A stretch of DNA of 24,000 nucleotides. Source: Buttiauxella warmboldiae. Lineage in GTDB: Bacteria; Pseudomonadota; Gammaproteobacteria; Enterobacterales; Enterobacteriaceae. Location: NCBI RefSeq assembly GCF_003818135.1, contig NZ_RPOH01000017.1, forward strand, positions 28,670 to 52,669, given 5' to 3'. Shown piece by piece: positions 6,664-23,333 of the stretch. Position 1 is the first letter of the stretch. Each line of letters begins with the position of its first letter. Below the pieces are notes generated by a model that saw only the letters and a list, made by a program, of their open reading frames with translations, ran no database searches and was not told the origin of the DNA. The translations under genes and the position numbers were made by a program.

Positions 6664-8520
6664 ATGCATATATGCAATGGTTTTAAAGCCTCCGCGATTG
6701 TGGTGGCACTATTTTCTCCAGCTGTATTGGCTGCGTCGCCGCCCTGGCAGGAGGGGCAAAGCTATAGTGCGGGGACAACGGTAAGCTTTAACGGTAAAGA
6801 GTATCAGGCTCTGGCCGCGCATACTGCGTGGCCCGGAAGCAACTGGAATCCAGCCGATTCAATAACACTGTGGAAAATACTAAATACCTCCACGGAAATA
6901 CCACCACAAGCACCTGCTAATCCAGAGACCATTAATACACCTGCCGGTAGCCAATACCCTACATGGGTAAAAGGGGCTGTTTACACGGGGGGAATGCGGG
7001 TAATTTATAATGGGGTCGTTTATGAAGCAAAATGGTGGACCAATCAGGAATCGCCTGAAGAATCAGGTCAGTGGGGAGTCTGGAAACGAATTGGTGAAGC
7101 AACGCCGCCACCGACAACAGATCCAACCCCAACCCCAACGCCTGACCCAACCCCAACGCCTGACCCAATTCCAACGCCTGACCCAATTCCAACGCCTGAC
7201 CCAGCCCCAACCACAGGAAAACAACTCGGAGCTTACTTTGCCCAGTGGGGAGTTTATGGGCGTAACTATAAGGTAAAAAATATTGATACCAGTGGTTCAG
7301 CTAGTAAGCTTACCTTTATTAACTATGCGTTTGGCAATATCTACCCGCAAAATGGTGGCTATGAGTGCGATATCATCCATCGAGCAGAAGCGGGTAATGG
7401 TGATGGTGGTGATGCTTTTGCTGATTTTTCTAAATCATTTGAGGCAAGTGAAAGCGTAGACGGTAAAGCTGACGCATGGGATCAACCGCTGCGTGGTAAT
7501 TTTGGCCAGTTGAAAAAGCTCAAAGCAAAATACCCTGATATGAAGGTGTTTATTTCGCTGGGGGGATGGAGTTGGTCAAAATGGTTCTCTGCAGCCTCTC
7601 AGACTGATGCCCTAAGAAAACAGCTGGTGAGCAGCTGTATCAATCTCTACATTAAAGGAAATTTACCGACATATGACAATGCTGGTGGTTCTGGCGCCGC
7701 AATAAATGTCTTTGATGGTATTGATATTGATTGGGAATATCCCGTCATCCAGGGGATTGGGTATAATACCGTTAGCCCTGAGGATAAACAGAATTATACT
7801 TTATTACTGAAAGAGTTCAGGGAGCAGTTAGATGCTCTGGGCGTCGCCAATAAAAAACGGTATCCACTGACCGTCGCCATTGGCGCAGGTAAGGATAAAA
7901 TAGCCGCTACTGAGCCGAGTAAATATAGTCAGTATCTGGACTGGATAAACCTGATGTCTTACGACTATAACGGCGGCTGGCAGTATGCAGACCCGACCTA
8001 TGTACCGCCTGGGTCCAGTCGGCCAAATGCCGATCCGAATGCGAAAACGAATTTCCATGCCCCGTTATTTATCGATCCTAATGCACCGGATGCATCTGCT
8101 GCAAATGGTCCGACTAACTCGGTCGACGGTGCCGTTAAAATTCTGCTTGCGCAAGGCGTTACGCCGCAGAAAATTGTTGTCGGTATTCCATTCTACGGAC
8201 GGGGATGGACAGGTGTCCCAAATGTTAGTAATGGTTTGTACCAGAAAGCGTGGCGACCGGCAGCAGGGACCTATGAAACTGGAATTGAGGATTATAAAGT
8301 ACTTAAAAATGCTGCTGGCACATTAAGTATTCACAATGTAACAAAGCAGGCATATAAATTTGATGGATCGACGTGGTGGTCTTATGACACGCCAGCCACA
8401 ATCAAAACCAAAGTTGATTACGTGAAATCCAATAAGTTGGGCGGGGTATTTAGCTGGTCACTTGATGGCGATACCGTAGATGGAGAGCTTATGAATGCGA
8501 TGGGCGAAATGCGTAAATAA
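6664..8520 (+). CDS. Secreted GH18 chitinase with two N-terminal CBM5/12 chitin-binding domains and a Pro/Thr linker
   Basis: 618 aa. It has a signal peptide (...FSPAVLA/AS) and two W/Y-rich CBM5/12-like modules (YSAGTTVSFNGKEYQALAAHTAW..., YTGGMRVIYNGVVYEAKWWTNQ). A PT linker follows, then the GH18 catalytic motif FDGIDIDWEYP. Confidence 0.9.
   Translation: MHICNGFKASAIVVALFSPAVLAASPPWQEGQSYSAGTTVSFNGKEYQALAAHTAWPGSNWNPADSITLWKILNTSTEIPPQAPANPETINTPAGSQYPTWVKGAVYTGGMRVIYNGVVYEAKWWTNQESPEESGQWGVWKRIGEATPPPTTDPTPTPTPDPTPTPDPIPTPDPIPTPDPAPTTGKQLGAYFAQWGVYGRNYKVKNIDTSGSASKLTFINYAFGNIYPQNGGYECDIIHRAEAGNGDGGDAFADFSKSFEASESVDGKADAWDQPLRGNFGQLKKLKAKYPDMKVFISLGGWSWSKWFSAASQTDALRKQLVSSCINLYIKGNLPTYDNAGGSGAAINVFDGIDIDWEYPVIQGIGYNTVSPEDKQNYTLLLKEFREQLDALGVANKKRYPLTVAIGAGKDKIAATEPSKYSQYLDWINLMSYDYNGGWQYADPTYVPPGSSRPNADPNAKTNFHAPLFIDPNAPDASAANGPTNSVDGAVKILLAQGVTPQKIVVGIPFYGRGWTGVPNVSNGLYQKAWRPAAGTYETGIEDYKVLKNAAGTLSIHNVTKQAYKFDGSTWWSYDTPATIKTKVDYVKSNKLGGVFSWSLDGDTVDGELMNAMGEMRK
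7135..7206 (+). repeat. Four tandem 18-bp repeats (CCAACGCCTGACCCAAYY) encoding the PTPDP(T/I) linker of the chitinase
   Basis: Read directly. The copies lie at 7135, 7153, 7171 and 7189. They are in frame and lie inside the CDS. Confidence 0.85.
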
Positions 8521-9767: not shown

Positions 9768-10200
9768 TTAAATTAAAAATGTTCCTGCCTCATTGGCAAA
9801 CTTTTGTAACAGATCGCTCCATTCCTGCATCATTTGCCGCGTTGTTCAATATATCTTGCATGATTGTAGGCACTTCGAACGGCATTGGGGTCTGCATGAG
9901 ATAACTGTGCCTCGATCCATTCCGTAGGATAACCAGGCTCATTTAATGCAGTGGAAAGCGTGCCCCTGATACCATGGCCGGTCAGCATTCCTTCATATCC
10001 TGCACGTTGAACGGCTTTATTAATAGTATTCTCACTTATCTGTTTGAGAGCGTTACTATTATGTGCAAGTAGATAGCATTGGGAGGCCGCAGACATGCCC
10101 ACCAGCGTTTTAATTATTTCCACTGCCTGCCATGAAAGGGGAACAACGTAGGGCGGAATGGTTCTTTGTCTCAGGTTTCTTTGTCACCGGAAGAGGGTGG
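9768..10200 (-). pseudogene. P4-type tyrosine integrase, C-terminal remnant with multiple frameshifts
   Basis: ORF 9830..10123 reads ...ISENTINKAVQRAGYEGMLTGHGIRGTLSTALNE...IEAQLSHADPNAVRSAYNHARYIEQRGK. That gives the catalytic HxxR box, the LSH motif and the Y region. The expected tail MMQEWSDLLQKF... continues in another frame down to the stop at 9768. Upstream, PPYVVPLSWQAVEII is readable but earlier segments need further frame changes. The upstream limit is unclear. Confidence 0.7.
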
Positions 10201-10590
10201 AGGAACATGGAATCGGATGTAACAAAAACAACACATGTCGTTCGTCGTTCAGGTAAGCGGAAAAAGGATAAAAACGGCCAGAAAGGTGTGTTATTACAGC
10301 AGATAAGCAGGGGAAGGGGCGGCTAACTAACTGAATCCGGTAGCGCTTTTTTTGGGTGTATTTATTGTTACGGAAAAGTTGAAATCTGGAGTGATTTTTC
10401 ATTATGGTGCGTCCGAGTTGATTGGTCAATATCGGTTTTATTTTTATCTTCCAATGGGTTGGAAGTTGTAAAACAAAAAATGTACACACGCTTGTACCAA
10501 TGAAATAACAAATTTATTTTATATATTTTTCTCATGCTTTCTGTGGGTTGGGCAGCAAAATTGATTCTGTATGCAAATGACATATAAAAT

Positions 10591-10642
10591 ATGTCAGTGT
10601 TTTTATAATATAAAACATGTCAGTGTTTTTATAATATAAAAC
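10591..10642. repeat. Perfect tandem duplication of a 26-bp AT-rich unit (ATGTCAGTGTTTTTATAATATAAAAC x2)
   Basis: Read directly, with units at 10591-10616 and 10617-10642. A partial third match (ATATAAAAT) lies immediately upstream. Each unit contains a near-palindrome, TTTTTATA-A-TATAAAA. Confidence 0.9.
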
Positions 10643-10958: not shown

Positions 10959-11255
10959 TCACCTCCAGGGGGAGTGTCTGAGGGTATCCTGGGACTGGCT
11001 GAGCACACGGATCACTGTAACAACAGAATGCGAGGGCACGAAATAGATCATGTGCTGCTCAACCGGCAACGAAAAGATATTTTCTCCAAGCTCTGCCCGG
11101 TGCGTACCGATGTCATGGCTGGCCAGAATGTCGAACACCGCAGCCAGCCTGCCGATATACGCATCCGCTTTTTCCAGCCCAAACTGCCGGAAACTGTAGT
11201 TCCAGATGGCCTCCAGATCCGCTTCAGCTTTCGGTGTCAGCTTAATTGCTTTCAT
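10959..11255 (-). CDS. parE: ParE-family type II toxin
   Basis: 98 aa. MKAIKLTPKAEADLEAIWNYSFRQFGLEKADAYIGRLAAVFDILA...YFV..SHSVVTVIRVL is the ParE/RelE-superfamily pattern. It overlaps the upstream antitoxin gene by 14 nt. Confidence 0.85.
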   Translation of the reverse strand: MKAIKLTPKAEADLEAIWNYSFRQFGLEKADAYIGRLAAVFDILASHDIGTHRAELGENIFSLPVEQHMIYFVPSHSVVTVIRVLSQSQDTLRHSPWR

Positions 11256-11502
11256 CTGCCACTCTGGCTCTTACCTTCTTCAGGAAGGCATCCTGCTCCC
11301 AGGGCATAGCGTCACCGCTGCTTATTCCTTCGGCCAGAAGATCACGAAGTATCTGTAGACGCGATTCTGCCTGTTTTTCACGAAGCAAACGCAGCCCATC
11401 ACGCATCACTTCACTCTGTGTCCGGTAATCGCCAGCCTGAACCAGTGAATCAATAAACTCACGCAGTTCATCTCCGACATCGACCGTCATTGTCCGGGCC
11501 AT
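11242..11502 (-). CDS. parD: ParD-family (RHH, COG3609-type) antitoxin
   Basis: 86 aa. MTVDVGDELREFIDSLVQAGDYRTQSEVMRDGLRLLREKQ...LRDLLAEGISSG is the ParD/CC2985-type pattern. A strong RBS (AGGAGG) precedes the ATG. Confidence 0.85.
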   Translation of the reverse strand: MARTMTVDVGDELREFIDSLVQAGDYRTQSEVMRDGLRLLREKQAESRLQILRDLLAEGISSGDAMPWEQDAFLKKVRARVADESN

Positions 11503-11769: not shown

Positions 11770-11830
11770 GTTGCAATAGATTTTGTATCTTTTAACAGTT
11801 TCACAGAATTCGGATCTCCGGAGAAAAGGA
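11770..11830 (+). promoter_or_regulatory. Copy 1 of the conserved leader element (GTTGCAAT...TTGTAT...TTCGGATCT..GAGAAAAG), 166 bp upstream of the RHH gene ATG
   Basis: It aligns by eye with 15356-15425 and 19130-19180. The TTCGGATCT core lies at 11809-11817. Confidence 0.5.
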
Positions 11831-11858
11831 GCGACTGCTTAAGAATTGCGTCCAATAA

Positions 11859-11954
11859 AATGACATGATGTCATTAAATTGACCGCTTAATAATTAAATG
11901 ATTTACTTCACTTCTGATTAATTCATTTACTGAAACTGTATTCAGAGAATACAG
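11859..11954 (+). promoter_or_regulatory. Promoter/operator region of the RHH-KAP operon
   Basis: AATGACAT-G-ATGTCATT (11859-11875) is a perfect 17-bp palindrome. It is followed by TTGACC (11879-11884), a 17-nt spacer and TTTACT (11902-11907). CTGTATTC-AGA-GAATACAG (11936-11954) is a perfect 8-bp inverted repeat just before the RBS AGGAG (11965-11969). Confidence 0.4.
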
Positions 11955-11974
11955 CCATCCTGACAGGAGCCCAC

Positions 11975-13063
11975 ATGCTGAGTCAGCTGACCCTGCGCTT
12001 TCACAAGAAACTGATCGAGGCACTGAAAGTACGTGCCGGTCGCGAAAATACCTCGGTCAACGCCCTGGCCGAACGCTTCCTCGATGACGGTCTGAAGTCG
12101 GCTGCCACCGGCGACGGTTATTTTCAGCTGATCGCCGATCCGGATGCCACGATCCGTCAGCTGTACCGGCATATCATTCTTGGCCAGACCTTCGGCACGT
12201 CAACGTTCTCCCGCGACGAACTGCGCTTTCTGCTGGCCTACGCCCGGGAGGCCTTCATATGCGGGCATGGCAGACTTGCCACTCTCCCGGCGCTGCGCAC
12301 TCTACTGGAGATCACCCGCGACCTGCTGGCATGGCAGGTCGAGCATGATCACCCGGTGGATGCCCACTACCTGAAGGGGACCTTCCGGCTGCCCGGCGAA
12401 AACTGGGTCGAGGAATTTGACGATTTCCTTGCGACACTGCGTCCGGTCATTGATCAGGGCTATGCAGAGCACCTGCTACGACCACTGGGGAGCGACTGTT
12501 TTACGCTGGCTGACTTTCCCGACGCCGTGCTGGCGGAGATTTTCACGCTCCCTCGACTGAAGGGCATTTTCCCACTGGTCCTGCGCGGGCTGGGCTGGAC
12601 GGATGAAAAGGCCGCGGCTCTGGCGCAAGAGCTACGCCCGCTTATCCCGGCCGTGACGGAAATCCTTGAGGCCGGCACGCTGCGTCTCGAGATCCGCGTG
12701 GACGGCCAGCATCCGGATCAGCGTCCGGGAGCCTGGTATGACACCCCGAAAATACATCTGATCATCACAGGCCAGGAGTTTGTGGTACCGGTGGACTGGG
12801 CAACTTTCACCGAACTGCTGGGTCTGTTCAGCCTGTATGTCCGCTTCCCGGAGGCGCTGGCACACGGCCATCATGGTGAACGCGTCATGTTCTCGCCGCC
12901 AGGCCATGTCATGGCGGACGGTTTTTTTGGCCTCGACGGGCTGCGGATTTTCCTGCCAGCAGAGGGGTTTGAGACGCTGGTTCGGGAGCTGGTAACGCGC
13001 AGCAGCGAAGGCTCGCTGGCTGACGCCCTGTCCGGGCTGCGCTGCCTGTACGGAGATCTGTGA
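11975..13063 (+). CDS. Hypothetical protein with an N-terminal ribbon-helix-helix-like domain fused to ~315 aa of unknown family
   Basis: 362 aa. The N-terminus LTLRFHKKLIEALKVRAGRENTSVNALAERFLDDGL fits the Arc/CopG RHH pattern (beta strand, helix, helix). It has a good RBS, and the stop lies 1 nt before the next gene's ATG. The block is GC-rich and antisense ORFs in it are spurious. Confidence 0.8.
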   Translation: MLSQLTLRFHKKLIEALKVRAGRENTSVNALAERFLDDGLKSAATGDGYFQLIADPDATIRQLYRHIILGQTFGTSTFSRDELRFLLAYAREAFICGHGRLATLPALRTLLEITRDLLAWQVEHDHPVDAHYLKGTFRLPGENWVEEFDDFLATLRPVIDQGYAEHLLRPLGSDCFTLADFPDAVLAEIFTLPRLKGIFPLVLRGLGWTDEKAAALAQELRPLIPAVTEILEAGTLRLEIRVDGQHPDQRPGAWYDTPKIHLIITGQEFVVPVDWATFTELLGLFSLYVRFPEALAHGHHGERVMFSPPGHVMADGFFGLDGLRIFLPAEGFETLVRELVTRSSEGSLADALSGLRCLYGDL

Positions 13064-13064
13064 T

Positions 13065-15290
13065 ATGGCTGATATCAACGCAATGAGGCTGGATCAGTCC
13101 GTCACCTGTCCGGAACAGGATCGTTATGGTTTCCGCTATGTCGCCGCACAGCTGGCACAGTCTGTTCAGGCTATTGGCCGCGAAGGAAGCGCTGTTATCG
13201 GCATTGAGGGGGCATGGGGTTCCGGAAAAACTAGTCTGCTGAACCTGCTGCGTGCGGCACTGGATGAGCAGAAAGAGGACAACACGTTTGTCCTGAGTAT
13301 CTCTCCCTGGCTTGATGGCAGCGACACCAGTCTGGTGGAATCGCTGCTGATACCGGTGGCAGGTATCATTGCCGCAGAGGAAGAGCGCCGCCTTCCCCTC
13401 GAAGAGCGGGAAAGCCTCAAAAAGAAAAAGGGGCTCACCCGGACAGCCCGGACCCTCATGGAATATACCCGAGCGACGGCCCGCCATCTGGCTCCGCTGG
13501 CTCAGGCCGCGACTGTGATCCCGGGCGTACCTGATGCGAGCGGGGCGCTGAACGCGCTATCGGAAACCAGCTGGTTAAAAGAAAAACAAAAAACCGCAGC
13601 GGAGATGCGTACCGAAATCGCAGAAAAAATTGTCGCAATGGATCTCAGTTTTATTATTCTTCTTGATGATCTGGACAGACTGGAGCCTGCGCAGGCTGTG
13701 GAAGTTGTCCGTCTGGTCAAATCCGTCGCCGATTTTCCCCGCTTCCGCTACATACTCTGTTATGACAAGACGGTGCTGGCGCAGGCCATCAAGAAAGGAC
13801 TGGGCGTGGAGGATGGCGAACTTTATCTGCAGAAAATCGTGCAGATTTCCTTCAGCCTGCCAAGACCGGAATCCTTCGATCTGCGCCGGGAATTTCTGGC
13901 CGGCGTCGTAGGGTTGTATGAATCCGTTAACGGAATGTCTCCGAGCGAAGAGTTAATAGATGAGTTAAACAGGGTAACAGATATTTATGGTGCAGCCCTG
14001 AACACCCCCCGTGAAGTCCATCTGGCACTGAATAATCTGCGTTTTAGGTACAGCGGAATACGCGATTACGTCTTTCTGCCGGATCTGTGTTTCCTGCAGC
14101 TTATCCGTACCACCAATTCCGGGCTGTATAACTGGACAGAAGAATATCTGACAGAGCGGGCCATCGTGGAATCCGGGGACGGCCGTGTCAGTGAAGAGGA
14201 GCAAGAACAGCTGGCACAAAAGCTGGGCGAATACTTGTCCAGATTTCGCTCTTCAGAGGCAAAATCTGCAATCTCCCTGCGCCACTGGGTTCCGGGTATT
14301 TCGGGGTATCAGGCTGATAATCTGAAATTGTTCGCTCAGGCGGGCGAGGAAGAGAAAGCGATGATGACAGCCAACCGCCGCCTCGGGAGCACCGCATACT
14401 GGCGTTATTACTTTGCATTTTCCTCACCGCAGAACGTTCTGCCGCCAGCGTATTTTGATGATCTGTTCCGTAAAAGTAGTAATCCCGAAAATTATCTGTC
14501 AATGGCCCGGGAGTTGTTAGGCCGGATCAACAGCAATGGTGTGTCCTCACGTACCTGGTTTGAGCATATTCTGAGCCAGATGACACGACCGATGATAAAC
14601 GAGCGTACAGCATCAGAGTGTTCTGGTCTGCTGACATTCTTCTTTGAAGAGGGCGATGAGATACACGCACGATTCCGACAGAGAAATCACTGGTTTTCCC
14701 GGTATGATCTTGATGTCAACAGCGTGGCTGATCGTCTTCTGAAAAGAATGCTGGATGATGACCGGGCTAAGACGATGAACACCCTGCTTTCACTGACGAT
14801 GAAAGGAACCGCCCTGGTCTGGATTGCGAATTATATCCGCGATTTGCTGTGGCAGAATGGGCTGGCTGGTAACCGGCCCGCCTCAGAGCAGGAACGCGTG
14901 CTGACAAATGATGAGTTGAACCTCGTTCGCAGCAAGTTTAGTGAGCGCCTGAATAATAATAAGCTGATATTGCAGCTTCTGCAGGGAGGTGAGCTGGGAG
15001 GATTCGTCTGGGCCTGTCAGGATATTGCAGGCCAGGAAACACTGATTGCCTGGATTTCACAACACGCTACCTGTGACGAGGTATTTCTGACCTTATTGCT
15101 GAGTCTGCGCTCTCACTGCATCTCCAGCGAGTCCGGACACTATCTATCCCTGAAAATAACGGAAATCGCTCATTTGTTCGGGGGAGAGAAAGAACTGCGC
15201 GAAAGGCTAAGCCGTATTGAAGCTGAAGGTCAGTTTCCTGATCAGACGGATGAAATCAATAAAGCTATCATGCTCAGCAAATCATTCTGA
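13065..15290 (+). CDS. KAP-family P-loop NTPase (apparently soluble)
   Basis: 741 aa. The Walker A motif is VIGIEGAWGSGKTSLLNLL. The Walker B motif is SFIILLDDLDRLEPAQAVEVVRLVKSVADFPRFRYILCYD, the hallmark KAP arrangement. A long helical C-terminal region follows. I see no convincing TM helices in the Walker A-B insert. Confidence 0.9.
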   Translation: MADINAMRLDQSVTCPEQDRYGFRYVAAQLAQSVQAIGREGSAVIGIEGAWGSGKTSLLNLLRAALDEQKEDNTFVLSISPWLDGSDTSLVESLLIPVAGIIAAEEERRLPLEERESLKKKKGLTRTARTLMEYTRATARHLAPLAQAATVIPGVPDASGALNALSETSWLKEKQKTAAEMRTEIAEKIVAMDLSFIILLDDLDRLEPAQAVEVVRLVKSVADFPRFRYILCYDKTVLAQAIKKGLGVEDGELYLQKIVQISFSLPRPESFDLRREFLAGVVGLYESVNGMSPSEELIDELNRVTDIYGAALNTPREVHLALNNLRFRYSGIRDYVFLPDLCFLQLIRTTNSGLYNWTEEYLTERAIVESGDGRVSEEEQEQLAQKLGEYLSRFRSSEAKSAISLRHWVPGISGYQADNLKLFAQAGEEEKAMMTANRRLGSTAYWRYYFAFSSPQNVLPPAYFDDLFRKSSNPENYLSMARELLGRINSNGVSSRTWFEHILSQMTRPMINERTASECSGLLTFFFEEGDEIHARFRQRNHWFSRYDLDVNSVADRLLKRMLDDDRAKTMNTLLSLTMKGTALVWIANYIRDLLWQNGLAGNRPASEQERVLTNDELNLVRSKFSERLNNNKLILQLLQGGELGGFVWACQDIAGQETLIAWISQHATCDEVFLTLLLSLRSHCISSESGHYLSLKITEIAHLFGGEKELRERLSRIEAEGQFPDQTDEINKAIMLSKSF

Positions 15291-15327
15291 TTTTTCCAGT
15301 TCTGCCATTTTATTAACAATCTCCAGG

Positions 15328-15354
15328 GAACCTGCCCAGCAGGTTCTCTTTTTC
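15328..15354 (+). terminator. Rho-independent terminator of the RHH-KAP operon
   Basis: GAACCTGC-CCA-GCAGGTTC forms an 8-bp perfect stem followed by TCTTTTTC. Confidence 0.7.
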
Positions 15355-15355
15355 A

Positions 15356-15425
15356 GTTGCAATCATTGTTGTATACCTGAATAACCTCCGTCTTTTGGGG
15401 TTTTCGGATCTGAAAAAGAGAAAAC
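15356..15425 (+). promoter_or_regulatory. Copy 2 of the conserved leader element (contains GGGGTTTTCGGATCTGAA at 15397-15414), 138 bp upstream of the next ATG
   Basis: GTTGCAATCATTGTTGTATACC...TCCGTCTTTTGGGGTTTTCGGATCTGAAAAAGAGAAAAC. The 18-mer is identical to 19151-19168. Confidence 0.55.
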
Positions 15426-15482
15426 AAAAAAAGCACATAGATTAATAGCTAAAAACTATAAAAAACGGAACAAGAACAAAAC

Positions 15483-15540
15483 TTGCACAGCTTAACGATT
15501 TATCGTAATGTATAATACATGAAATCGATAAGGAGGTTTT
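15483..15540 (+). promoter_or_regulatory. Promoter/operator and RBS of the 229-aa HTH gene
   Basis: TTGCAC (15483-15488), a 17-nt spacer and TAATGT, with TATAAT at 15511-15516 as an alternative -10. The palindromes are ACGAT-TT-ATCGT (15495-15506) and ATGTAT-A-ATACAT (15508-15520). The RBS is AAGGAGG (15530-15536). Confidence 0.45.
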
Positions 15541-16230
15541 ATGAACACACCAACCCAAAAACGAAACGGTAATGATCGTTCCTCCACTATGCATAATTTT
15601 ATGGACAACAGCATTGCTGCAGAGCGTCTTCAGAATTTTTTTCAGGACCTGGCAGAAGAAGTCCGGTCCGGTAAAACTCCGATTGTTCCTGAGAGTATGG
15701 GGAAGACCGACGCGGTTTTTACCATTGATACCATTCTGAAGTTTCTTGAAAATCGTGCAGTTAACAGCCTGACGCCGGAAAAAAAACGCCAGCAGCGACG
15801 TTTACACAGTAAGGCTCTTTTCCTTCAGACGCTGGAAAATGACGGCGGGATTTACAATTCAGCTAAAGCTGCAGAAATGGTGGGCAAGAGTAAACCAACG
15901 GTTAAAACCTGGAAAGATACCGACCAGTTGCTTGCCCTTGATATTGATGGTGAGTTTTACTACCCGGCGTTTCAGTTCACTGATGAGGAAGGGATCTCGG
16001 ATAAAGGTGTGCTCCGGGGGGTGGCCGAACTGCTGCCTATGCTGGGCAGCTTCAGTGACAGAATGAAATATTCTTTCTTTATGGAACAGAGAAATACTAT
16101 CCTCGATGGCCTGAACCCTGCAGGACGTACGTTTACCGTTGCAGACGTTCTGAAGGGCAATCCGGATGAAAAAGTGATGAATGAATTACGCCGGCTGGCT
16201 CGCAACTACGGTACACAGAACGCAGTTTAA
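15541..16230 (+). CDS. HTH DNA-binding protein resembling Xre-type antitoxins with a C-terminal DUF2384/ParS/MbcA-like toxin-binding domain
   Basis: 229 aa. The HTH-like segment is IYNSAKAAEMVGKSKPTVKTWKDTDQLLALDIDGEFYYPAFQF. The C-terminal part is RMKYSFFMEQRNTILDGLNPAGRTFTVADVLKGNPDEKVMNEL. It has a strong RBS. The function is inferred from motif memory and the neighbouring RES gene. Confidence 0.6.
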   Translation: MNTPTQKRNGNDRSSTMHNFMDNSIAAERLQNFFQDLAEEVRSGKTPIVPESMGKTDAVFTIDTILKFLENRAVNSLTPEKKRQQRRLHSKALFLQTLENDGGIYNSAKAAEMVGKSKPTVKTWKDTDQLLALDIDGEFYYPAFQFTDEEGISDKGVLRGVAELLPMLGSFSDRMKYSFFMEQRNTILDGLNPAGRTFTVADVLKGNPDEKVMNELRRLARNYGTQNAV

Positions 16231-16232
16231 TG

Positions 16233-16256
16233 AAAGGGGGTGCTTGCCCCCCCTTT
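16233..16256. terminator. Bidirectional hairpin terminator between the convergent HTH and RES genes
   Basis: AAAGGGGG-TGCTTGCC-CCCCCTTT. The A/T runs flanking a G/C stem give a U-tract on either strand. Confidence 0.6.
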
Positions 16257-16261
16257 ATCAG

Positions 16262-16960
16262 TTATTCCTCAACAGGAATTCCCAGTTCATAAACAAGAAT
16301 ATCCGCCGCTTCCTTACCCTGATATTCAAATTGACTGAGACTTGTCTGGCTCCGGGTTGTGGCCAGACCGGTTCCGGCCGGATCGTCATGCCATAGAACA
16401 AGGCATGGGTCACCGGTGACATTTGACGGAAACTCCATTCCGTCAAACCCTGCTGAATGAACCTTTTCAGCCAGATGCTGAGTAACAGCACGTGTTGCCG
16501 TTGTCACATCATGCAACGTCAAATCACTGCCTTTAATCAGCTTACTGACCTGAAGGACCCTGATATCTTTCTCAATAACTACAGTTCCCATCATGTAATT
16601 ATTGAGGTCCGATTCCCTGAGCCCTTTTTTATGCTGAAACACTTCCTTCATTGCCGTGTCAGGTGTTCGGGCCACGTACATGGAACCATTCACACCATCA
16701 TTAAGACTGTAACGGCAATCCTCACCATTACGATTGAAAAAGACACTGCTTCCGCCGTGGCTACCGAGCTGAAGCCGGAACACCTCAGTTCCTGATGTAT
16801 CGGTCATTTCGGACCGCTGGAGCTGCTCGTCTTGCAACTTCCCGATTTTATCGAGAGCTGCCACGTCCTGTTCATTCATGCCTGCATTTACAGAAGTTTC
16901 AACAGCCTGATTAACTTCGTCGTTTAGGTTTACCTCTGATTTTAAACTCATATTGATCAC
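16262..16960 (-). CDS. RES-domain protein (putative NAD+-targeting toxin) with an acidic ~60-aa N-terminal extension
   Basis: 232 aa. The R/E/S signature is spaced as in RES toxins: FFNRNGEDCRYS...SMYVARTPDTAMKEVF...GFDGMEFPSNVTGDPCLVLWHD. The tracked start is a GTG at 16960. An ATG at 16951 is an alternative start. Confidence 0.75.
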   Translation of the reverse strand: MINMSLKSEVNLNDEVNQAVETSVNAGMNEQDVAALDKIGKLQDEQLQRSEMTDTSGTEVFRLQLGSHGGSSVFFNRNGEDCRYSLNDGVNGSMYVARTPDTAMKEVFQHKKGLRESDLNNYMMGTVVIEKDIRVLQVSKLIKGSDLTLHDVTTATRAVTQHLAEKVHSAGFDGMEFPSNVTGDPCLVLWHDDPAGTGLATTRSQTSLSQFEYQGKEAADILVYELGIPVEE

Positions 16961-17181
16961 CGCCTTTCTGGTAAGGATTTACATAAGCCATAGGCTTAAT
17001 CTCCATCGTTTTGATGTTTTGTCCCCCGGGCAGAATGCTCGGCAGGACGATGTATCTGTCGCTGTGCTGACAGACCCTCAAAGCATAAACGATTGAGATT
17101 GTTAAACAACGGCTTGTAATGCACAGAGGTACAGAAAAATTACGGGATACAGGGAGACAACCGTTCATAAAAGAAAAAGTG

Positions 17182-17214
17182 CAGATCCGCCACTACCGGA
17201 AATCGGATCTGAAA
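17182..17214. promoter_or_regulatory. Inverted repeat CAGATCCG-N14-CGGATCTG carrying a partial copy of the leader-element core (TCGGATCTGAA)
   Basis: Read directly. The arms lie at 17182-17189 and 17204-17211, and TCGGATCTGAA lies at 17203-17213. It is intergenic, between the RES gene and the small membrane ORF. Confidence 0.4.
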
Positions 17215-17423
17215 GGCAGAAGAGATGGATTATTGCCTGACAATCACAAAAAGTTAAGAATTGTTGCTACGTGGGGATTATTGCAAGGAATGCAAAATTC
17301 AGGACTGACTGAGCCTTTAATTGCAACAAAGAGGAAAGGAAAACTTTTTTTCAGTTTTTTTATCAACCAGCCTTAAAGGCCGCATCGGATTTCCTACATA
17401 CAGTTTTAGATAAGGAAAATTCT

Positions 17424-17621
17424 ATGACTGTATTTCTGATGACCGCTGCCTATGGTCTTTTAAAAACTGGCTCTCTCATTGTTTTAGTTGTTGGTGCCTA
17501 TAATGGCTGGACATTGTTCTGGAAAAATTATGGCCGCCTTCCTCATATCTATCGTTCGTGCTGGCGTTACCAGAGGCGATTTATTCTCAAACGAATCTGG
17601 AAACGCGTCAGAACCGGCTAA
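17424..17621 (+). CDS. Small hypothetical membrane peptide (hydrophobic N-terminus, very basic C-terminal tail)
   Basis: 65 aa. MTVFLMTAAYGLLKTGSLIVLVVGAYNGWTLFW is followed by KNYGRLPHIYRSCWRYQRRFILKRIWKRVRTG. An RBS (AAGGA) lies 7 nt upstream. The 3' end overlaps the convergent HTH gene by 4 nt. Confidence 0.45.
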   Translation: MTVFLMTAAYGLLKTGSLIVLVVGAYNGWTLFWKNYGRLPHIYRSCWRYQRRFILKRIWKRVRTG

Positions 17622-17630
17622 GCCGGTTCT
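17610..17630. terminator. Perfect 9-bp hairpin spanning both convergent stop codons
   Basis: AGAACCGGC-TAA-GCCGGTTCT. The loop is the stop codon of the small ORF. There is no strong U-tract on either side. Confidence 0.45.
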
Positions 17631-17902
17631 TCTAACAGCATTCCCAGCCCGGCCAGCCAGCAAAGGCAGCACCAGGTGGTGAACACCATCCGGGTCTGGC
17701 CGGATTTCCACTTGCGGATTGTGCGTTCATCTACGTCCAGGCGGTTGGCCAGCTGGATATCAGTCAGGTGGATCAGCGCCCGGACCAGGCCAATTTCACT
17801 GGCAGAAGGCACCATCCAGCTTTCGCCCGAACACAGCGTTTCAGGATTAAATTTCTCAAGCTCAATCAGTTCTTTAATCTGCCTGGCATTTTCCGCCTTC
17901 AT
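17618..17902 (-). CDS. Small Xre/Cro-type HTH protein (antitoxin- or regulator-like)
   Basis: 94 aa. SEIGLVRALIHLTDIQLANRLDVDERTIRKWKSGQTRMVFTTW resembles the HTH of MqsA/HigA-type regulators. It starts 19 nt downstream of the DUF3800-like gene on the same strand. Confidence 0.7.
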   Translation of the reverse strand: MKAENARQIKELIELEKFNPETLCSGESWMVPSASEIGLVRALIHLTDIQLANRLDVDERTIRKWKSGQTRMVFTTWCCLCWLAGLGMLLEEPA

Positions 17903-17921
17903 ATGTAGTTAACCTTTCTGA

Positions 17922-19055
17922 TTAAGATTGCGACAGACTTTGTACACGATGAGCCAGCCGCCGCGCTTCTTCCACATCCCTGAGTTCCCTCGCTTTTTCC
18001 ATCATTTCTGTGGTTGGCTCAGGCAATTTTTCAAAAAACTCCTTAAACTGTTTTCCGACAGACTTCAGGGAAACACTGTCCGTTCTGGCTGTCTTAATAT
18101 TGGTGTAAACAAGGCGGTTAAGAGGTTTTGTCAGCTCTTTCTCTTCCATAAATCGTTTGAAGATCCAGAGATAAATATCAACCAGCTCCAGACCTGCGCT
18201 TTGCGTGCCCGACTGGAAGACAAGCGGTTCAGCCGGCATGTTCTTCATATCCATGACCGGCAAACCAGGCCCGAGTGCCCACGGCTGTTTTCGAATCTGG
18301 TAGTAAAACTCGTTCAGCTCCCGCTGGGTGGTGTTGAACTGTGATTGCTGGTCCACAATGATGTTGGCTTTTCTGTTAGGAGCCCCCAGTCGGGAGCAGA
18401 TACCGTGCAATACGAACTGAAATCCGATCATATTGGGCATGATTTGCAACTTTTCCTTGTTGGCTTTGCAGTTGTACCCCAGCCCTTCAAAGTTGACCAT
18501 CGCCCAGGACAGAGCGTCTGTAATAAGTTCAACTGAACGGGCATCACCCAGAGTATCGACTCGCTGAAGCAGCACACCACAGACCTCGTTGAAAAGAGAG
18601 GAGGAACGTCCATCATGTGCCTCGAGACGGGCACGCCATGCTTTTTCAGCCAGCTCATCATCAAACAGATTTGCCAGATTCAGCAGCAACGGATAGCGCA
18701 GTGGAGTCCAGTAGACACTCCAGGGCACCACCGGATTCAGTCCCTGATCAAACACCTGATCGAAGAACGAAATAATGGCGTGATCCCGTTTAACCACCTG
18801 CCAGACATCAAACCGTATCCGGTGCTTCTTCTGCAGTACAAGCAGTGTATCGATAACTTCATCAAGGCGGTACATGCCCAGTTCTGCGGCATGAAGGCGC
18901 TGTACGTTCAGTTTTTTCCGCAAACTGGCAAGTTCAGCTTCAGCAACCTTATCCAGGTCATCCGGAGAGGAAAGCACGCCGTAAGAAAGTACAGGCTGGG
19001 TACGGTCAAAAAGATTCGGACCGGTATGACCGGTTTCATCCACATAAAAGTGCAT
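17922..19055 (-). CDS. DUF3800-like protein
   Basis: 377 aa. The N-terminal MHFYVDETGHTG matches the (Y/F)(I/V)DE(S/T)G motif. The distal FQSGTQSAGLELVDIYLW matches the xS..S.GLQLAD motif. Both are hallmarks of DUF3800 as I remember it. The RBS AAAGGA lies 7 nt upstream. Confidence 0.65.
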   Translation of the reverse strand: MHFYVDETGHTGPNLFDRTQPVLSYGVLSSPDDLDKVAEAELASLRKKLNVQRLHAAELGMYRLDEVIDTLLVLQKKHRIRFDVWQVVKRDHAIISFFDQVFDQGLNPVVPWSVYWTPLRYPLLLNLANLFDDELAEKAWRARLEAHDGRSSSLFNEVCGVLLQRVDTLGDARSVELITDALSWAMVNFEGLGYNCKANKEKLQIMPNMIGFQFVLHGICSRLGAPNRKANIIVDQQSQFNTTQRELNEFYYQIRKQPWALGPGLPVMDMKNMPAEPLVFQSGTQSAGLELVDIYLWIFKRFMEEKELTKPLNRLVYTNIKTARTDSVSLKSVGKQFKEFFEKLPEPTTEMMEKARELRDVEEARRLAHRVQSLSQS

Positions 19056-19129
19056 TCAAATATCCTTTATCAGGCTGGAGGAAAGCGAAACGGCATAATT
19101 CGAGTGAATGTAAAACCTTCATGTATCTG

Positions 19130-19180
19130 GTTGCAAGTGTTCCGCTTATGGGGGTTTTCGGATCTGAACGTGAAAACAGA
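19130..19180 (+). promoter_or_regulatory. Copy 3 of the conserved leader element (GGGGTTTTCGGATCTGAA at 19151-19168), 145 bp upstream of the kfrA-like ATG
   Basis: GTTGCAAGTGTTCCGCTTATGGGGGTTTTCGGATCTGAACGTGAAAACAGAGAG. The 18-mer is identical to 15397-15414. Confidence 0.55.
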
Positions 19181-19186
19181 GAGCGC

Positions 19187-19270
19187 GTATGTATTTTATG
19201 TATTATTTATTCTGTATGTACTATATGTATTGTATGTATTTTGTGTATTTTTCACTCCGGTTGTACAATA
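19187..19270 (+). promoter_or_regulatory. Array of seven direct TGTAT pentamers plus the TTGTACAA palindrome in the divergent promoter region
   Basis: TGTAT starts at 19190, 19199, 19213, 19226, 19231, 19235 and 19244. A TGTAC lies at 19217 and TTGTACAA at 19261-19268. Confidence 0.5.
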
Positions 19271-19301
19271 ACCTCTTTCCCTGAAAGACCGGAGCCTTTC
19301 C

Positions 19302-19913
19302 ATGACCACGCTATCCCCGGACACCGTCCGCCGCATTGAAGACGCCGCTGCCGCCCTGATCGCTGCCGGTGTCCCGAACCCGACCAACGAGCAGGTCCGC
19401 CAGCACCTCGGCGGCGGCTCGCTGTCCCACATCTCCCCGGTGATGCGCGCATTCCGCGCCCGTCAGCGCGAGCAGGCCGCTGAACAGACCACGACCCTGC
19501 CGGCAGAGCTGGCGCAGTTGCTGACGGGTCAGCTGGGGCTGCTGTGGCAGGCGGCGGTGAAACAGGCTGAAGCCGGGGCTCTGGCGGCGCGCGAGCAGGC
19601 CGACGATGACATTGCCCGGGCCGACCAGGAGCGGGATGAGGCGCTGGCGAAAGTGGCCGCCCTGGAAAGTGAACTGGCGGTGCTGCGGGAGGTGGTGGCC
19701 GAACGTGATCGCCTGCTGCAGGAGGTGCGCGAGCTGCGCGCGGAAGTACTGCCGCTGCGTGAGCAGGTGGCCCGCCTGACCGCCACCGGCGAACACCTGG
19801 CGGCACAGCTGCAGGACACGAAAGCGGAACTGAAGGAGGCCCGGGAGGATGGCCGCGCCCTGCAGATCGAGCTGCTGGCCCTGGCACGCCATGATGGGAA
19901 GGTGAAAAAATGA
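19302..19913 (+). CDS. KfrA_N-like DNA-binding protein with a long Ala/Glu/Arg/Leu-rich coiled coil
   Basis: 203 aa. VRRIEDAAAALIAAGVPNPTNEQVRQHLGGGSLSHISPVMRAFRARQRE matches the KfrA N-terminal DNA-binding domain pattern. The remainder is heptad-like. The gene is very GC-rich, which produces three long spurious antisense ORFs. Confidence 0.8.
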   Translation: MTTLSPDTVRRIEDAAAALIAAGVPNPTNEQVRQHLGGGSLSHISPVMRAFRARQREQAAEQTTTLPAELAQLLTGQLGLLWQAAVKQAEAGALAAREQADDDIARADQERDEALAKVAALESELAVLREVVAERDRLLQEVRELRAEVLPLREQVARLTATGEHLAAQLQDTKAELKEAREDGRALQIELLALARHDGKVKK

Positions 19914-20530
19914 GACAGGAAAGAACATTACGCATACGGGCATTTCGCCGTGCGCTGGAGCTTGGCGCCGGTGAGCGGGCTGAAGAGTGCCGTCATTTTC
20001 ATCGCTGGAAAATGGAACTGAGGAATTTCCCGCACGGCAGCTGCGATTTAGCCAGCAACACACTGGCGCAGTACCTGACAGATACTGAGGGGGGCCACCC
20101 CTGCATCATTTTTATGGAAGGGAACGCAGGCTTTCAGGAAGCTGAAAACTCAACTGTCCATGGCCATGTCATCGTATTGCTGGACGGTGAGTACACCGAT
20201 CTGACGCTGGATCAATTCGAAGAATATCCGGACTACATTCCTTCCGAACCTGTCGAATCTGGCGGGCCGCTTGGTAAGCTGTTACGCAATATCATGAAGC
20301 ATGAAGACCATGTACAAACCCGCCAGGTTGATCTCGATGGTGGCGAAGAGCTGTATGCCTGGTTACGCGATACCGCCAACGAAGTGCTGGCTGCGGATCC
20401 GGAATGGCAGGCCTGGGAACAGTCTATAGCGGAACAAAGGGAAGCGGCCCTTAAGCTGTTCCCATTTCAGTCTAACATGCAGAAAATTGAGTGCGAACAG
20501 GGCCAGGACAGTCAGGAGGTTGCCAGATGA
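19910..20530 (+). CDS. Hypothetical 206-aa protein with an ordered Cys...His...Asp motif
   Basis: ATGA overlaps couple it to both neighbours. It contains FPHGSCDLASNTLAQYL ... VHGHVIVLLDGEYTDLTLDQF. I recognise no family, and a thiol-hydrolase-like triad is only a guess. Confidence 0.7.
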   Translation: MRQERTLRIRAFRRALELGAGERAEECRHFHRWKMELRNFPHGSCDLASNTLAQYLTDTEGGHPCIIFMEGNAGFQEAENSTVHGHVIVLLDGEYTDLTLDQFEEYPDYIPSEPVESGGPLGKLLRNIMKHEDHVQTRQVDLDGGEELYAWLRDTANEVLAADPEWQAWEQSIAEQREAALKLFPFQSNMQKIECEQGQDSQEVAR

Positions 20531-21333
20531 AGATTTATCATTACACTGACCTGAACGGCCTGAACGGCCTGAACGGCCTGAAGGGCATCATCGAATCAGG
20601 CTCACTGTGGGCGACGCACTTTTCCTTCCTCAATGACAGCAATGAACTGATTCACGGCATGAACTGCCTTGAGAATGCCCTGCAGCACCTGAGGGACGAC
20701 TTTAACCCGAAAACCCTTAAGTTCATCGAACAGGCACTGACGCACTTCAGAATGCACCGGGCTGTTCATGTCTATAACCTTTCTTTCTGTCTCGAACCCG
20801 ACCTGTTAAGTCAGTGGCGGGGTTATGGCAGCTCTCAGGGTGTGTGTCTGGAATTTGATGATGAAGAACTGATTGCCTCCCTGCAACTCACGCACTACCA
20901 AGTGTTTAAAAACCGGGTGATCTATACCAAAGAGGATTCCACGGTTGAAGCCCGGAACGAAATCCTCGCCTTTTTTCGTCAGCCAGAGGTTCAGGCGGCA
21001 ATAAATGCAGATGCAATGCATGAGATGATTCAGGCAACCAAACTGGCACACAGCCTGCCGCCTTTTTTCAAGAATGACGGTTTCAAAGAGGAGCAGGAGT
21101 TCCGGATGGTAATTCTCCCGGACAGACCTTTTGAGGGAGTCAATTTTCGTGTCAATGACAGCGGTCTGGTGCCATATCTGATCATTAAAGCAAAAGATAA
21201 GCTGCCACTGAAAAACATCAGAATTGGTCCCCGCAGTAACAGAGCAATGATGATGGATGGGATTTCATTCCTGTTACAGAGCAGGGGGTACACCAGTACA
21301 CGGATTTCGTTTACTGAGACGCCGTTCCGGTAA
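20527..21333 (+). CDS. DUF2971-family protein
   Basis: MKIYHYTDLNGL...IIESGSLWATHFSFLNDSNEL ... YNLSFCLEPDLLSQWRGYGSSQGVCLEF ... FKNDGFKEEQEFR fits the DUF2971 pattern. I prefer the ATG at 20527 (RBS AGGAGG at 20512-20517, ATGA overlap) to the tracked upstream start at 20491. Confidence 0.75.
   Translation: MKIYHYTDLNGLNGLNGLKGIIESGSLWATHFSFLNDSNELIHGMNCLENALQHLRDDFNPKTLKFIEQALTHFRMHRAVHVYNLSFCLEPDLLSQWRGYGSSQGVCLEFDDEELIASLQLTHYQVFKNRVIYTKEDSTVEARNEILAFFRQPEVQAAINADAMHEMIQATKLAHSLPPFFKNDGFKEEQEFRMVILPDRPFEGVNFRVNDSGLVPYLIIKAKDKLPLKNIRIGPRSNRAMMMDGISFLLQSRGYTSTRISFTETPFR
20551..20586 (+). repeat. In-frame 9-bp tandem repeat, CTGAACGGC x3 plus a degenerate CTGAAGGGC (LNG LNG LNG LKG)
   Basis: Read directly. 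The copies start at 20551, 20560, 20569 and 20578. Confidence 0.9.
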
Positions 21334-21368
21334 ACTCAATTAAGAAGTACAAACTTCAAGGGATCAGT

Positions 21369-22109
21369 ATGTTGAATAAAGTTTCACAAATTAATTTGGC
21401 CAAAATCTTGGCTGAAAAATTTAACGAAGGTGACTGGCAGGAGCTGTTTGCTGTTACCGATTGTGAAGATGTTCCGGAAGGGCTGTATAAATTCTACCAG
21501 CATGTTCACTGGGACAACCCGGAGCTGAAAGGGATGGCCATCTTTGCCATAGAAAGCACTCTGGCCAGGGACGCTGATAACCTTTCTAAAATCTGGGCGC
21601 TGGATAATGTTCAACGCTATATCAACAATGCCAATACTGAGTTATTCAATGAAATAAAGGACATTGTTAATCAGAATGGGCAAAGAAACGTTTCCGCAGC
21701 TCCAGTGAAAAATGTGAACGAAAACATTTACCAGGCTTTAGAAGATGCGGAAGTGTTGCTTCAGAAAAATGGACCACACCGGGCTTATGATCGTGTCCAT
21801 ACAGCTCTTCATGCTTCATTAAGACAAATGTGTGCAAACCATGGAATTGCGACTAATAGTACAAATAATAATGTTCCAGGATTGCTTTCCCTGATAACTG
21901 CACATCTCAAGGCGCTGCCGGATGATGGAAGAAACGAAGATGTGTTTAAAATGTTGAAGTCATCTGCCGCAATACTACATGGAATCAATAACCTGCGTAA
22001 CAATTACAGTATGGCCCATCCTACTGAAAATTTGCTTAATGAGGCCGACGCGCGTTTTGCCATAAATCTGGTTCGTTCCATTATGACTTATATTGATGAA
22101 TTGCTTTAA
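21369..22109 (+). CDS. Abi_C (abortive infection C-terminal domain)-like protein
   Basis: 246 aa. The C-terminal ALHASLRQMC...LLSLITAHLK...MLKSSAAILHGINNLRNNYSMAHPTE...ADARFAINLVRSIMTYI matches the Abi_C LRN..G.aH signature as I recall it. The RBS AAGGGA lies 6 nt upstream (spacer TCAGT). The gene is AT-rich relative to the upstream genes. Confidence 0.65.
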   Translation: MLNKVSQINLAKILAEKFNEGDWQELFAVTDCEDVPEGLYKFYQHVHWDNPELKGMAIFAIESTLARDADNLSKIWALDNVQRYINNANTELFNEIKDIVNQNGQRNVSAAPVKNVNENIYQALEDAEVLLQKNGPHRAYDRVHTALHASLRQMCANHGIATNSTNNNVPGLLSLITAHLKALPDDGRNEDVFKMLKSSAAILHGINNLRNNYSMAHPTENLLNEADARFAINLVRSIMTYIDELL

Positions 22110-22167
22110 TTTTAATAAAAATATGAGGCTCACAGCGAACAGATAGAGTATCAACGAAGAAGTGAAA

Positions 22168-22208
22168 TACGGCCAGCATTTCGAACTCTGGCCGTACTCT
22201 TATTGTTT
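22168..22208 (+). terminator. Rho-independent terminator of the four-gene operon
   Basis: TACGGCCAG-(11 nt)-CTGGCCGTA forms a perfect 9-bp stem followed by CTCTTATTGTTT. Confidence 0.7.
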
Positions 22209-22228: not shown

Positions 22229-22260
22229 GTAAGCGTTTAATGGGGTTTGAGGTCCAATGG
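22229..22260 (+). repeat. Possible IS66-family terminal inverted repeat (starts GTAAGCG)
   Basis: GTAAGCGTTTAATGGGGTTTGAGG lies immediately left of the IS21 remnant. IS66-family ends characteristically begin GTAAGCG. No matching partner is visible in the window. Confidence 0.3.
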
Positions 22261-22486
22261 GGCGAAAACCTACGCTAAGATGTGTGATTCATAGACATCA
22301 TTTCACTTCGTGCAGCTGCTGCTTGAGAAGATTGCAAAATGGCATCTGAATCGATCGCGGTTTGGCATCACAATCGATCATGATTTGGCACGCATCCGAT
22401 CACTGATTGGCATCCTGTCGCTCACTCCGGGAATTAACTCTTTCCATCACAGTCTTCATTGCTGTTTTAAGCCAATGGAGATATCG

Positions 22487-22978: not shown

Positions 22979-23234
22979 CGATCTGGGTCTGGAACCGCTG
23001 AGCAACGCGCAATGTAACGACCTGCTGGAGATAATCGAAGACCGCTACGGACAAAGCAGCACCATCGTAGTAAGCCAGTTCCCGGTAGACAAGTGGCACG
23101 GTCTGATGGAGAACCCGACAACGGCAGATGCGATCCTGGACAGGCTGGTGCATAACGCGCACAGGCTGGTACTCCAGGGAGAGTCAATGAGGAAAAATAA
23201 ACCGGCAGTGGAAAGCGATGAAAAAACAGGTTAA
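22971..23234 (+). pseudogene. istB: IS21-family helper ATPase IstB, C-terminal ~85 aa only
   Basis: ILDDLGLEPLSNAQCNDLLEIIEDRYGQSSTIVVSQFPVDKWHGLMENPTTADAILDRLVHNAHRLVLQGESMRK. This covers Walker B onward. The junction with istA' lies at ~22970-22978. Confidence 0.8.
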
Positions 23235-23333
23235 AAAGCAGTAGGAAAAGTTAAGTTCCCGGTTGATCGAATGGAAGCGAATCGCTGATCGAACTTCGAT
23301 GCCAATCCGTGATCGAATAGAGCGGAATACGCA

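Follow-up and report, generated by a model that had tools for sequence, protein, structure and literature searches.

The 24,000-nt stretch of Buttiauxella warmboldiae DNA analysed here (contig NZ_RPOH01000017.1, positions 28,670 to 52,669; referred to below as the window) is plasmid-like in gene content and contains an island of accessory gene modules, each of which is preceded by one copy of a short repeated element. From comparison with other plasmids, we interpret the element as a core recombination site of rfsF type, a target of ResD, which is a small tyrosine recombinase of Xer-like kind, and its copies as markers of cassette junctions; we put the probability of this reading at about 0.75. 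Along the island the copies, termed e1, e2, e4 and e3 in order of position, lead respectively into pifC-pifA, a 229-aa/RES gene pair, a 65-aa/94-aa/DUF3800 group and a kfrA-like/206-aa/DUF2971/AbiJ-like group. ResD, which is called RsdB in Salmonella plasmids, is found in IncF, IncI and IncR-type plasmids.

Anatomy of the repeated element and its statistical support

The initial annotation had aligned the element by eye, and its copies and distances are as it reported them: TTCGGATCT begins at 11809, 15403 and 19157, and the ATGs at 11975, 15541 and 19302 follow at distances of 166, 138 and 145 nt, respectively; the 18-mer GGGGTTTTCGGATCTGAA is the same at 15397–15414 and 19151–19168; the word GTTGCAA begins at 11770, 15356 and 19130; and a fourth copy, TCGGATCTGAA at 17203–17213, lies within the inverted repeat CAGATCCG-N14-CGGATCTG. 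The element family was also recovered by an independent repeat search of the window. GTTGCAA had been taken as an anchor of the element, a role that it loses on comparison, being absent from ~50 other copies and not enriched; the e1 and e2 occurrences are part of the sequence that flanks the pifA unit on its 3' side, which is also present in loci L003 and L038, and the one at e3 constitutes the -35-like hexamer upstream of the divergent DUF3800 gene, with which it is kept in IncF plasmids.

The unit was redefined from copies gathered in other plasmids and is ~45 nt long. Its left arm is variable, reading AGATCCG in the best copies and nTCCG in e2 and e3, and is followed by a centre rich in G and T, the right arm TTTTCGGATCT and a purine-rich tract, with the consensus a..agaTCCGg.t.t.gGgGTTTTCGGATCT. 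It can be read as a 28-bp site of 11-6-11 bp, namely AGATCCGnnnn, the G,T-rich centre and the right arm. An alignment of 38 copies, drawn from at least 15 genera, shows TCGGATC of the right arm to be invariant and the other positions of that arm to be ≥90% conserved. Nearly all copies have the purine-rich tract, 15–20 nt long, after the right arm, and it is often GAAAAAGAGA- or AAAGGAGG-like; its sequence differs between unrelated modules.

All four copies in the window are on the plus strand. The first, e1 (11809–11833), is half an rfsF-like site, with the right arm TTCGGATCT (11809–11817) and the purine tract CCGGAGAAAAGGAGCG (11818–11833) and with no recognisable left arm or centre. In e2 (15384–15425) the left arm ACCTCCGTCTT, the centre TTGGGG, the right arm TTTTCGGATCT (15401–15411) and the tract GAAAAAGAGAAAAC (15412–15425) can all be discerned, as can the left arm TGTTCCGCTTA, centre TGGGGG, right arm TTTTCGGATCT (19155–19165) and tract GAACGTGAAAACAGAGAG (19166–19183) of e3 (19138–19183). 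The remaining copy, e4 (17183–17226), has the full inverted repeat, with the left arm AGATCCGCCAC, centre TACCGG, right arm AAATCGGATCT (17200–17210) and tract GAAAGGCAGAAGAGAT (17211–17226). The left arm agrees with the consensus at 8/11 positions in e2 and 6/11 in e3, and e4 has perfect arms of 8 bp.

Fifty-one copies from other plasmids, and no window sequence, went into an nhmmer profile that was run on the window and, as a control, on 200 dinucleotide shuffles of it. The profile gave 32.7 bits for e3, 31.8 for e2 and 16.5 for e1, the best shuffle reaching 18.6, and the extended element is far beyond chance. The score of e4 was 9.5–14.3 bits (9.5 with the window-free profile), where the shuffles gave 0.02 hits per window at ≥10 bits and 0.005 at ≥14 bits; borderline by score, this copy has further support in its complete inverted repeat of 8 bp and in homologous copies found at the same position in other plasmids. 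Similarity beyond shuffled controls holds for the extended unit, with e2 and e3 above the best shuffle, and does not hold for the 9-mer and the 7-mer alone, as these short words are not enriched in the window (TTCGGATCT with one mismatch, 6 against 5.35 expected; GTTGCAA, 7 against 5.0).

Relation to the rfsF site of plasmid F and to ResD

Plasmid F carries AGATCCGTAACTTGGGGTTTTCGGATCT at NC_002483 45922–45949, between ccdA-ccdB-resD and pifC and ~170 nt before pifC; this site scores 41.5 bits with the profile, against 32–34 bits for e2 and e3, and e2 is the same as it over 17 nt (TTGGGGTTTTCGGATCT). The layout in F, with rfsF followed by CCGGAGAAATAAGAAG and then by pifC, is the same as that at e1, the start of which (11809) is the exact start of homology to the pifC leader that follows a resD-type primary site in L038 (primary denotes here a copy beside resD). 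On these alignments, e1 corresponds to the F rfsF-to-pifC junction minus its left half. The rfsF sites on which ResD acts have been placed at the start of the F segment 45922–52516 (PMC4398462), and because the core of the element matches the F site that is located where the literature places rfsF, the element is best interpreted as an rfsF-type site.

Sites of rfsF type have been described as imperfect inverted repeats of 10–14 bp around a 6–8-bp spacer (PMC5587640), a form which the primary copies and e4 fit, while the left arms of e2 and e3 are partial and e1 has none. In IncI1 plasmids rfsF is the switch point between alternative gene sets (PMC8004404), and in IncR plasmids it is an insertion point for foreign DNA (PMC9412624). 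Both the site family and its recombinase are known, and rfsF already counts as a mosaic junction.

A pattern scan (TCCG-N7-GGGTTTTCGGATCT, one genome per species) returned 38 loci, of which ~26 were from Enterobacterales, with at least 15 genera represented; the non-enterobacterial remainder is at chance level (~17 expected for 18 specified bases by our own calculation). The perfect inverted repeat AGATCCGGAACTCAGGGTTTTCGGATCT (AGATCCG-N14-CGGATCT) was present in ~17 of the scanned loci, after a conserved non-coding region of ~330 nt that occurs in at least 5000 PLSDB plasmids, pSLT included, and that is absent from the window. In 10 fetched loci a tyrosine recombinase gene lies ~1.2–2.7 kb from the site and is divergent from it; its product is 73–92% identical to the integrase of locus L002 (E. 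coli pOHT76-1_3), which is itself 90% identical to F ResD. The same arrangement of recombinase beside site is annotated in L047, L048 and L053, and in pSLT AGATCCGGGACTACCTTTTTTCGGATCT is upstream of a ccdA-ccdB-orf-orf-rsdB operon. The resD-family gene is the last or penultimate gene of operons that open with variable genes, e.g. hyp116-hyp229 in E. coli (L002 1841–3712) and ccdA-ccdB-orf-orf in pSLT (L046 4558–6710), and the two intervening open reading frames had no family match. A perfect site and the enterobacterial-type conserved upstream region also occur in a contig labelled as a Firmicute, Vagococcus sp. WN89Y (L035, 2594–2640); contamination or mis-binning of a plasmid contig may be the reason.

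In plasmid F a second site, TTCCGGTTTTACCTTTTTTCGGATCT at NC_002483 41088–41118 on the minus strand (L050 3089–3119), is situated 4.8 kb past rfsF and co-oriented with it; the pif unit ends there, and the leader of the 65-aa-peptide unit comes next. No mention of this site was met in the papers searched, and a literature search with TTTTCGGATCT returned unrelated primers only.

Module reuse and breaks of homology within the site

Copies are co-oriented in multi-copy loci (e.g. four in the window, three each in L004, L006, L010 and L048, and two in F), and ~27 adjacent pairs had the same orientation against 1 with opposite orientation (L054). Modules recur in other plasmids in other orders and beside other neighbours. 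The pifCA unit (match span 11809–15429) comes after the primary site in F and L038 and after e1 in the window. The 229-aa/RES unit (15408/15421–17190/17211) is 94–95% identical in Erwinia and Serratia plasmids and 83% identical in Edwardsiella, with other neighbours: it is preceded by a primary site in Serratia (L053), by DUF3800 in Edwardsiella (L054) and by pifA in the window, and is followed by a kfrA-like gene, vapBC and the 65-aa peptide gene, respectively. The peptide/DUF3800 unit (17183–19165) is 83% identical over its span to IncF plasmids (L001, L002), and the kfrA unit (19151–22193), 89% identical over its span, stands in L047 directly after the resD-adjacent primary site.

The ends of these matches fall on the element. 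Homology to the pifA unit ends at 15423–15429 and that to the RES unit starts at 15408–15421; homology to pAPEC-O1 starts at 17183, and that to the kfrA unit at 19140–19151, while in E. coli IncF plasmids the DUF3800-side matches stop at 19165 (among the matches listed, with 318 matching plasmids). Elsewhere, L048 and L049 are 100% identical rightwards from TGGGAGTTTTCGGATCT, and their unrelated left flanks both end in TTCCGA; window e4, L052 and L053 have a common left flank and left arm (TGCAGATCCGC), whereas their centres and right flanks differ. In all-against-all comparison, right-side homology passes the right arm and ends 7–39 nt further left (most ≤30 nt), and in five primary-site pairs left-side homology ends exactly at the end of TCGGATCT. 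With F as the query, the ends of 22 out of 23 long sampled matches fall between positions 1756 and 1796 of the query, in which the site occupies 1751–1778, and breakpoints cluster likewise with pAPEC-O1 as the query. The left arm travels with the DNA on its left, and the centre and right arm with the DNA on their right, which is the pattern expected of exchange in the centre of a tyrosine-recombinase site.

Of the roles that the initial annotation had offered for the element, that of a cassette boundary or recombination site is supported by its rfsF-type sequence, by the resD neighbours of the site in F and other plasmids and by the breaks of homology inside it. The possibility that it would prove to be part of a known repeat family unrelated to the modules came half true: the site family is a known one, yet it is linked with the boundaries of the modules. 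The four sites are at joints, and one further junction, within the DUF3800 unit, is without an element.

That junction is among several points that weigh against recombination by ResD at rfsF-type sites as the full account of the island. The left neighbour of DUF3800 (at the 3' end of the gene) changes at 17891–17910, where there is no element. No ResD homologue was found in the 24-kb window by tblastn with the L002 integrase as the query, and the window copies are therefore secondary, orphan sites. We infer the equation with rfsF from position and from secondary descriptions, and the exchange point is placed only within a conserved 15–28 bp, in which RecA-dependent exchange would leave the same pattern. 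The weak left arms of e2 and e3 and the missing left arm of e1 mean that some or all of the copies may be inactive scars, and recombination alone leaves the purine tract, the constant site-to-gene orientation and the 140–220-nt spacing unexplained.

Alternative explanations

The first alternative is a shared operator or insulator. A plasmid protein, possibly ResD, would bind the right arm and purine tract and co-regulate or insulate the island, and recombination would be incidental; we consider this unlikely, although it survives best of the alternatives. In ~25 annotated cases the site is 140–220 nt upstream of the first gene of the module and points to that gene, and the right arm and adjoining purine-rich tract are far more conserved than the left arm, which fits selection beyond that on a symmetric crossover site. 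At e3 the site directly adjoins the -35-like hexamer of DUF3800, and ResD reportedly also acts as a repressor (Lane et al. 1986). However, each module has its own operator/promoter region between site and ATG (CATCTGCATAT repeats for vapB, TGTATT repeats for kfrA and palindromes for others), and the best promoter after e2, TTGCAC-N17-TATAAT at ~15484–15518, is ~70 nt downstream of the site. Since the module promoters lie between site and ATG, the site is probably not transcribed with the modules, and the co-regulatory leader suggested in the initial annotation is left unproven. A pure operator also leaves the breaks of homology inside the site, and the perfect copy beside resD, unexplained. 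The recombination and operator roles are compatible and not mutually exclusive.

It is rather improbable, in our estimate, that the copies are inert scars, i.e. hybrid rfsF remnants left by past exchanges (by ResD at primary sites only, or by RecA on 20–28 bp of identity), so that the array is a historical record. The degenerate left arms of e1, e2 and e3, the absence of a resD gene from the window and the junctions that fall outside sites are all in keeping with such an origin. Neutral decay is nevertheless hard to reconcile with the conservation of the right arm across the 38 diverse copies (TCGGATC invariant, the rest ≥90%), and several secondary copies retain perfect 8-bp arms (L004 at 8894, L006 at 14997 and e4 in the window).

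A structured RNA or single-stranded DNA element (a 5' leader hairpin, a small RNA relic or a leading-region single-strand promoter) is very improbable. The inverted repeat is capable of forming a hairpin, and it is followed by an A/G-rich tract that is Shine-Dalgarno-like or (ARN)n-like and is in fixed orientation towards the genes, but compensatory changes were found in 0 of 7 arm pairs over the 38 copies, every departure being unpaired decay of the left arm. The stem is just 4 bp in e2 and e3, the module promoters are downstream of the element, the element is far smaller than Frpo/ssi elements, and a Rfam scan of the whole window at gathering thresholds returned nothing. The suggestion of a relic of a common transcript or small RNA accordingly finds no backing, conservation being asymmetric and at the level of sequence; the element behaves as a protein-DNA site, and not as a folded strand. 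The end of an insertion sequence (IS) or of a miniature inverted-repeat transposable element, to which the short, dispersed inverted repeat and the IS66-family element that abuts a copy in L002 might point, can practically be dismissed, as the copies are single and not paired, have no duplicated target beside them and are found between intact modules, invariably in one orientation, and the contact in L002 (6052–10558 in E. coli pOHT76-1_3) is an IS66-family element, itself carrying IS100, inserted into an rfsF-like site with an 8-bp target duplication (TTCGGATC). Frpo/ssi promoters, KorA/KorB-type operators, integration host factor sites, Xer/pdif sites and attC sites were also discarded as candidates, being a misfit in sequence and size.

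Comparison with known systems and proposed mechanism

The rfsF/ResD system of F and the rfsF/RsdB system (rsd-crs) of Salmonella virulence plasmids have the same core as the element and, as at e1, the same position relative to pifC; their architecture of imperfect inverted arms about a short centre is shared in full by the primary copies and e4 and in part by e2 and e3. The known rfsF system is described as a single locus per replicon for dimer resolution, whereas the window has four co-oriented copies within 7.4 kb; unlike known rfsF, none of these is beside resD, most have a weakened left arm, all are without the ~330-nt left region, and each bounds a separate defence or toxin module. Multi-site arrays were common in the fetched loci, F included, and our literature search found no description of co-oriented arrays of rfsF-type sites that split an island into reusable defence/toxin modules.

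There is a likeness to the attI/attC organisation of integrons, in that a recombinase divergent from a primary site is followed by a co-oriented array of secondary sites between exchangeable units, many of which are toxin-antitoxin or phage-defence units, and in that the secondary sites are more variable than the primary one. The element differs from attC in having no R/L boxes or GTTRRRY motif and in its size (28 bp against 57–141 bp), and the recombinase is ResD and not IntI; attC boxes were absent from the rfsF consensus and IntI from the linked recombinases, with ResD giving weak, sub-threshold matches to integron-integrase models. The rfsF units are multi-gene and have their own promoters, operators and terminators, often with a gene on the opposite strand, and a common Pc promoter or single-strand folding is without evidence in rfsF arrays. 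The pdif modules of Acinetobacter plasmids, on which XerC/D act, are similar in their 28-bp 11-6-11 sites with one conserved and one variable arm and in their small modules, often for toxin-antitoxin systems or resistance, in many plasmid contexts. However, the rfsF sequence is unrelated to dif, cer and pdif, the sites are in direct and not alternating orientation, and the recombinase is presumed to be plasmid ResD and not chromosomal XerC/XerD; when the aligned copies were inspected by eye, neither arm resembled the XerC GGTGCGCATAA-like or XerD TTATGTTAAAT-like arms. The layout, with multi-gene units that have their own promoters, fits the defining features of neither integrons nor pdif modules.

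A mechanism that would produce such an arrangement can be outlined as follows. The primary copy, beside and divergent from the resD operon, would resolve plasmid dimers, a function that is established for F and presumed for related plasmids. ResD acting in cis, or supplied by a co-resident plasmid, would pair two sites and swap strands in the centre, so that the left arm would stay with the left DNA and the centre and right arm with the right DNA. At directly repeated sites a module would leave as a circle with one site and could re-insert at any other rfsF; between two plasmids, cointegrates would exchange everything on one side of the site. Over repeated rounds the modules would come to stand in a co-oriented array, every one self-contained and with a promoter and operator of its own shortly after the site. 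The sequence comparisons show what the site is, its link to resD in other loci, co-orientation, module reuse and breakpoints inside the site; ResD as the enzyme that made the joints in the window, and continued activity of the window copies, are inferred.

A broader proposal is that ResD-rfsF goes beyond dimer resolution and drives an integron-like cassette platform on the plasmids of enterobacteria (IncF, IncI, IncR and relatives, with F among them), by which self-contained defence, abortive-infection and toxin-antitoxin modules would be excised, captured and reshuffled between co-oriented rfsF-type sites, and that plasmids without resD, of which the present one may be an example, carry orphan arrays which would be mobilised by co-resident ResD. 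We offer this tentatively, as a possibility to which we give somewhat under an even chance.

Gene content of the island and its surroundings

The first unit comprises pifC (11975–13063, +, 362 aa) and pifA (13065–15290, +, 741 aa), the products of which are 78% and 42% identical, respectively, to F PifC and PifA and equal to them in length; PADLOC calls the second protein PifA (E=1.2e-297). The operon, labelled RHH-KAP in the initial annotation, is on this evidence a homologue of the pifC-pifA phage-T7 exclusion operon of plasmid F, with PifA diverged. Its 3' flank (15325–15383, +) consists of an intrinsic terminator at 15325–15349, found by a terminator scan, plus a T run, then GTTGCAATCATTGTTGTATACCTGAATAAC, and is kept also in L003 and L038 directly before their sites. 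Promoter-like matches in the window scan did not rise above background (11 against 7.2), and only the pifA terminator was informative.

The second unit contains the gene for the 229-aa protein (15541–16230, +) and that for a RES-domain protein (16262–16960, -; Pfam RES). The two genes are convergent, unlike typical Xre-RES toxin-antitoxin operons, which are co-transcribed, and a homologue of the 229-aa protein is annotated as helix-turn-helix. In the third unit a 65-aa hydrophobic peptide (MTVFLMTAAYGLL...; 17424–17621, +) and a 94-aa protein (17618–17902, -) are encoded by convergent, overlapping genes, followed by DUF3800 (17922–19055, -; Pfam DUF3800). This 65-aa/94-aa gene pair had no family match; many IncF-type plasmids keep it, with DUF3800, DUF4238 or korC-like genes downstream, and it may encode a small toxin or membrane peptide.

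The fourth unit (19187–22193, +) has Pfam matches to KfrA_N, DUF2971 and Abi_C and a PADLOC call of AbiJ. It opens with a 9-bp-periodic TGTATT repeat region (19187–19270), which separates e3 from the kfrA-like gene (19302–19913, +) and contains at least 5 copies of a TGTATT/GTATGTATT repeat; this region is probably the operator of the KfrA-like protein, and similar repeats precede kfrA-like genes in L048, L049 and L053. A 206-aa protein and then DUF2971 are encoded between the kfrA-like gene and that for the AbiJ-like protein (21369–22109), where there is a terminator-like hairpin. An IS66-like end near 22229 truncates the island at the right end of this unit: an IS66-family element is indicated there by the end-like sequence GTAAGCG... 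near 22229, a DDE_Tnp_IS66 fragment at 23184–23996 on the minus strand and, inside the IS66 region (22229–23996), a 21-nt inverted repeat at 22394–22414 and 23298–23318.

Besides the island the window contains type II secretion genes, a GbpA-like protein, a chitinase, IS fragments and parDE (10959–11502, minus strand). The chitinase gene (6664–8520) contains five copies of an 18-nt tandem repeat (CCCAACCCCAACGCCTGA-like) at 7104–7211, which probably encodes a Pro/Thr-rich linker, and between the IS fragments and parE the 26-nt sequence ATATAAAA(T/C)ATGTCAGTGTTTTTATA occurs as a perfect tandem duplicate (10582–10633). An integrase fragment at 9830–10123 was tried as the cognate recombinase and rejected, as the tblastn search gave no similarity to the L002 integrase in the window.

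Significance

Even if the copies are scars only, they give precise module boundaries for annotation, the cargo here being phage-defence and addiction modules. If ResD does act on the secondary sites, a housekeeping recombinase that is very common in plasmids would also shuffle cassettes, and the mosaic make-up of the variable regions beside RepFIA/RepFIB and resD in plasmids of clinical importance would be accounted for; the 28-bp site would serve as a sequence marker for delimiting and finding new defence modules, and modules would be predicted to be mobilised in trans between co-resident plasmids.

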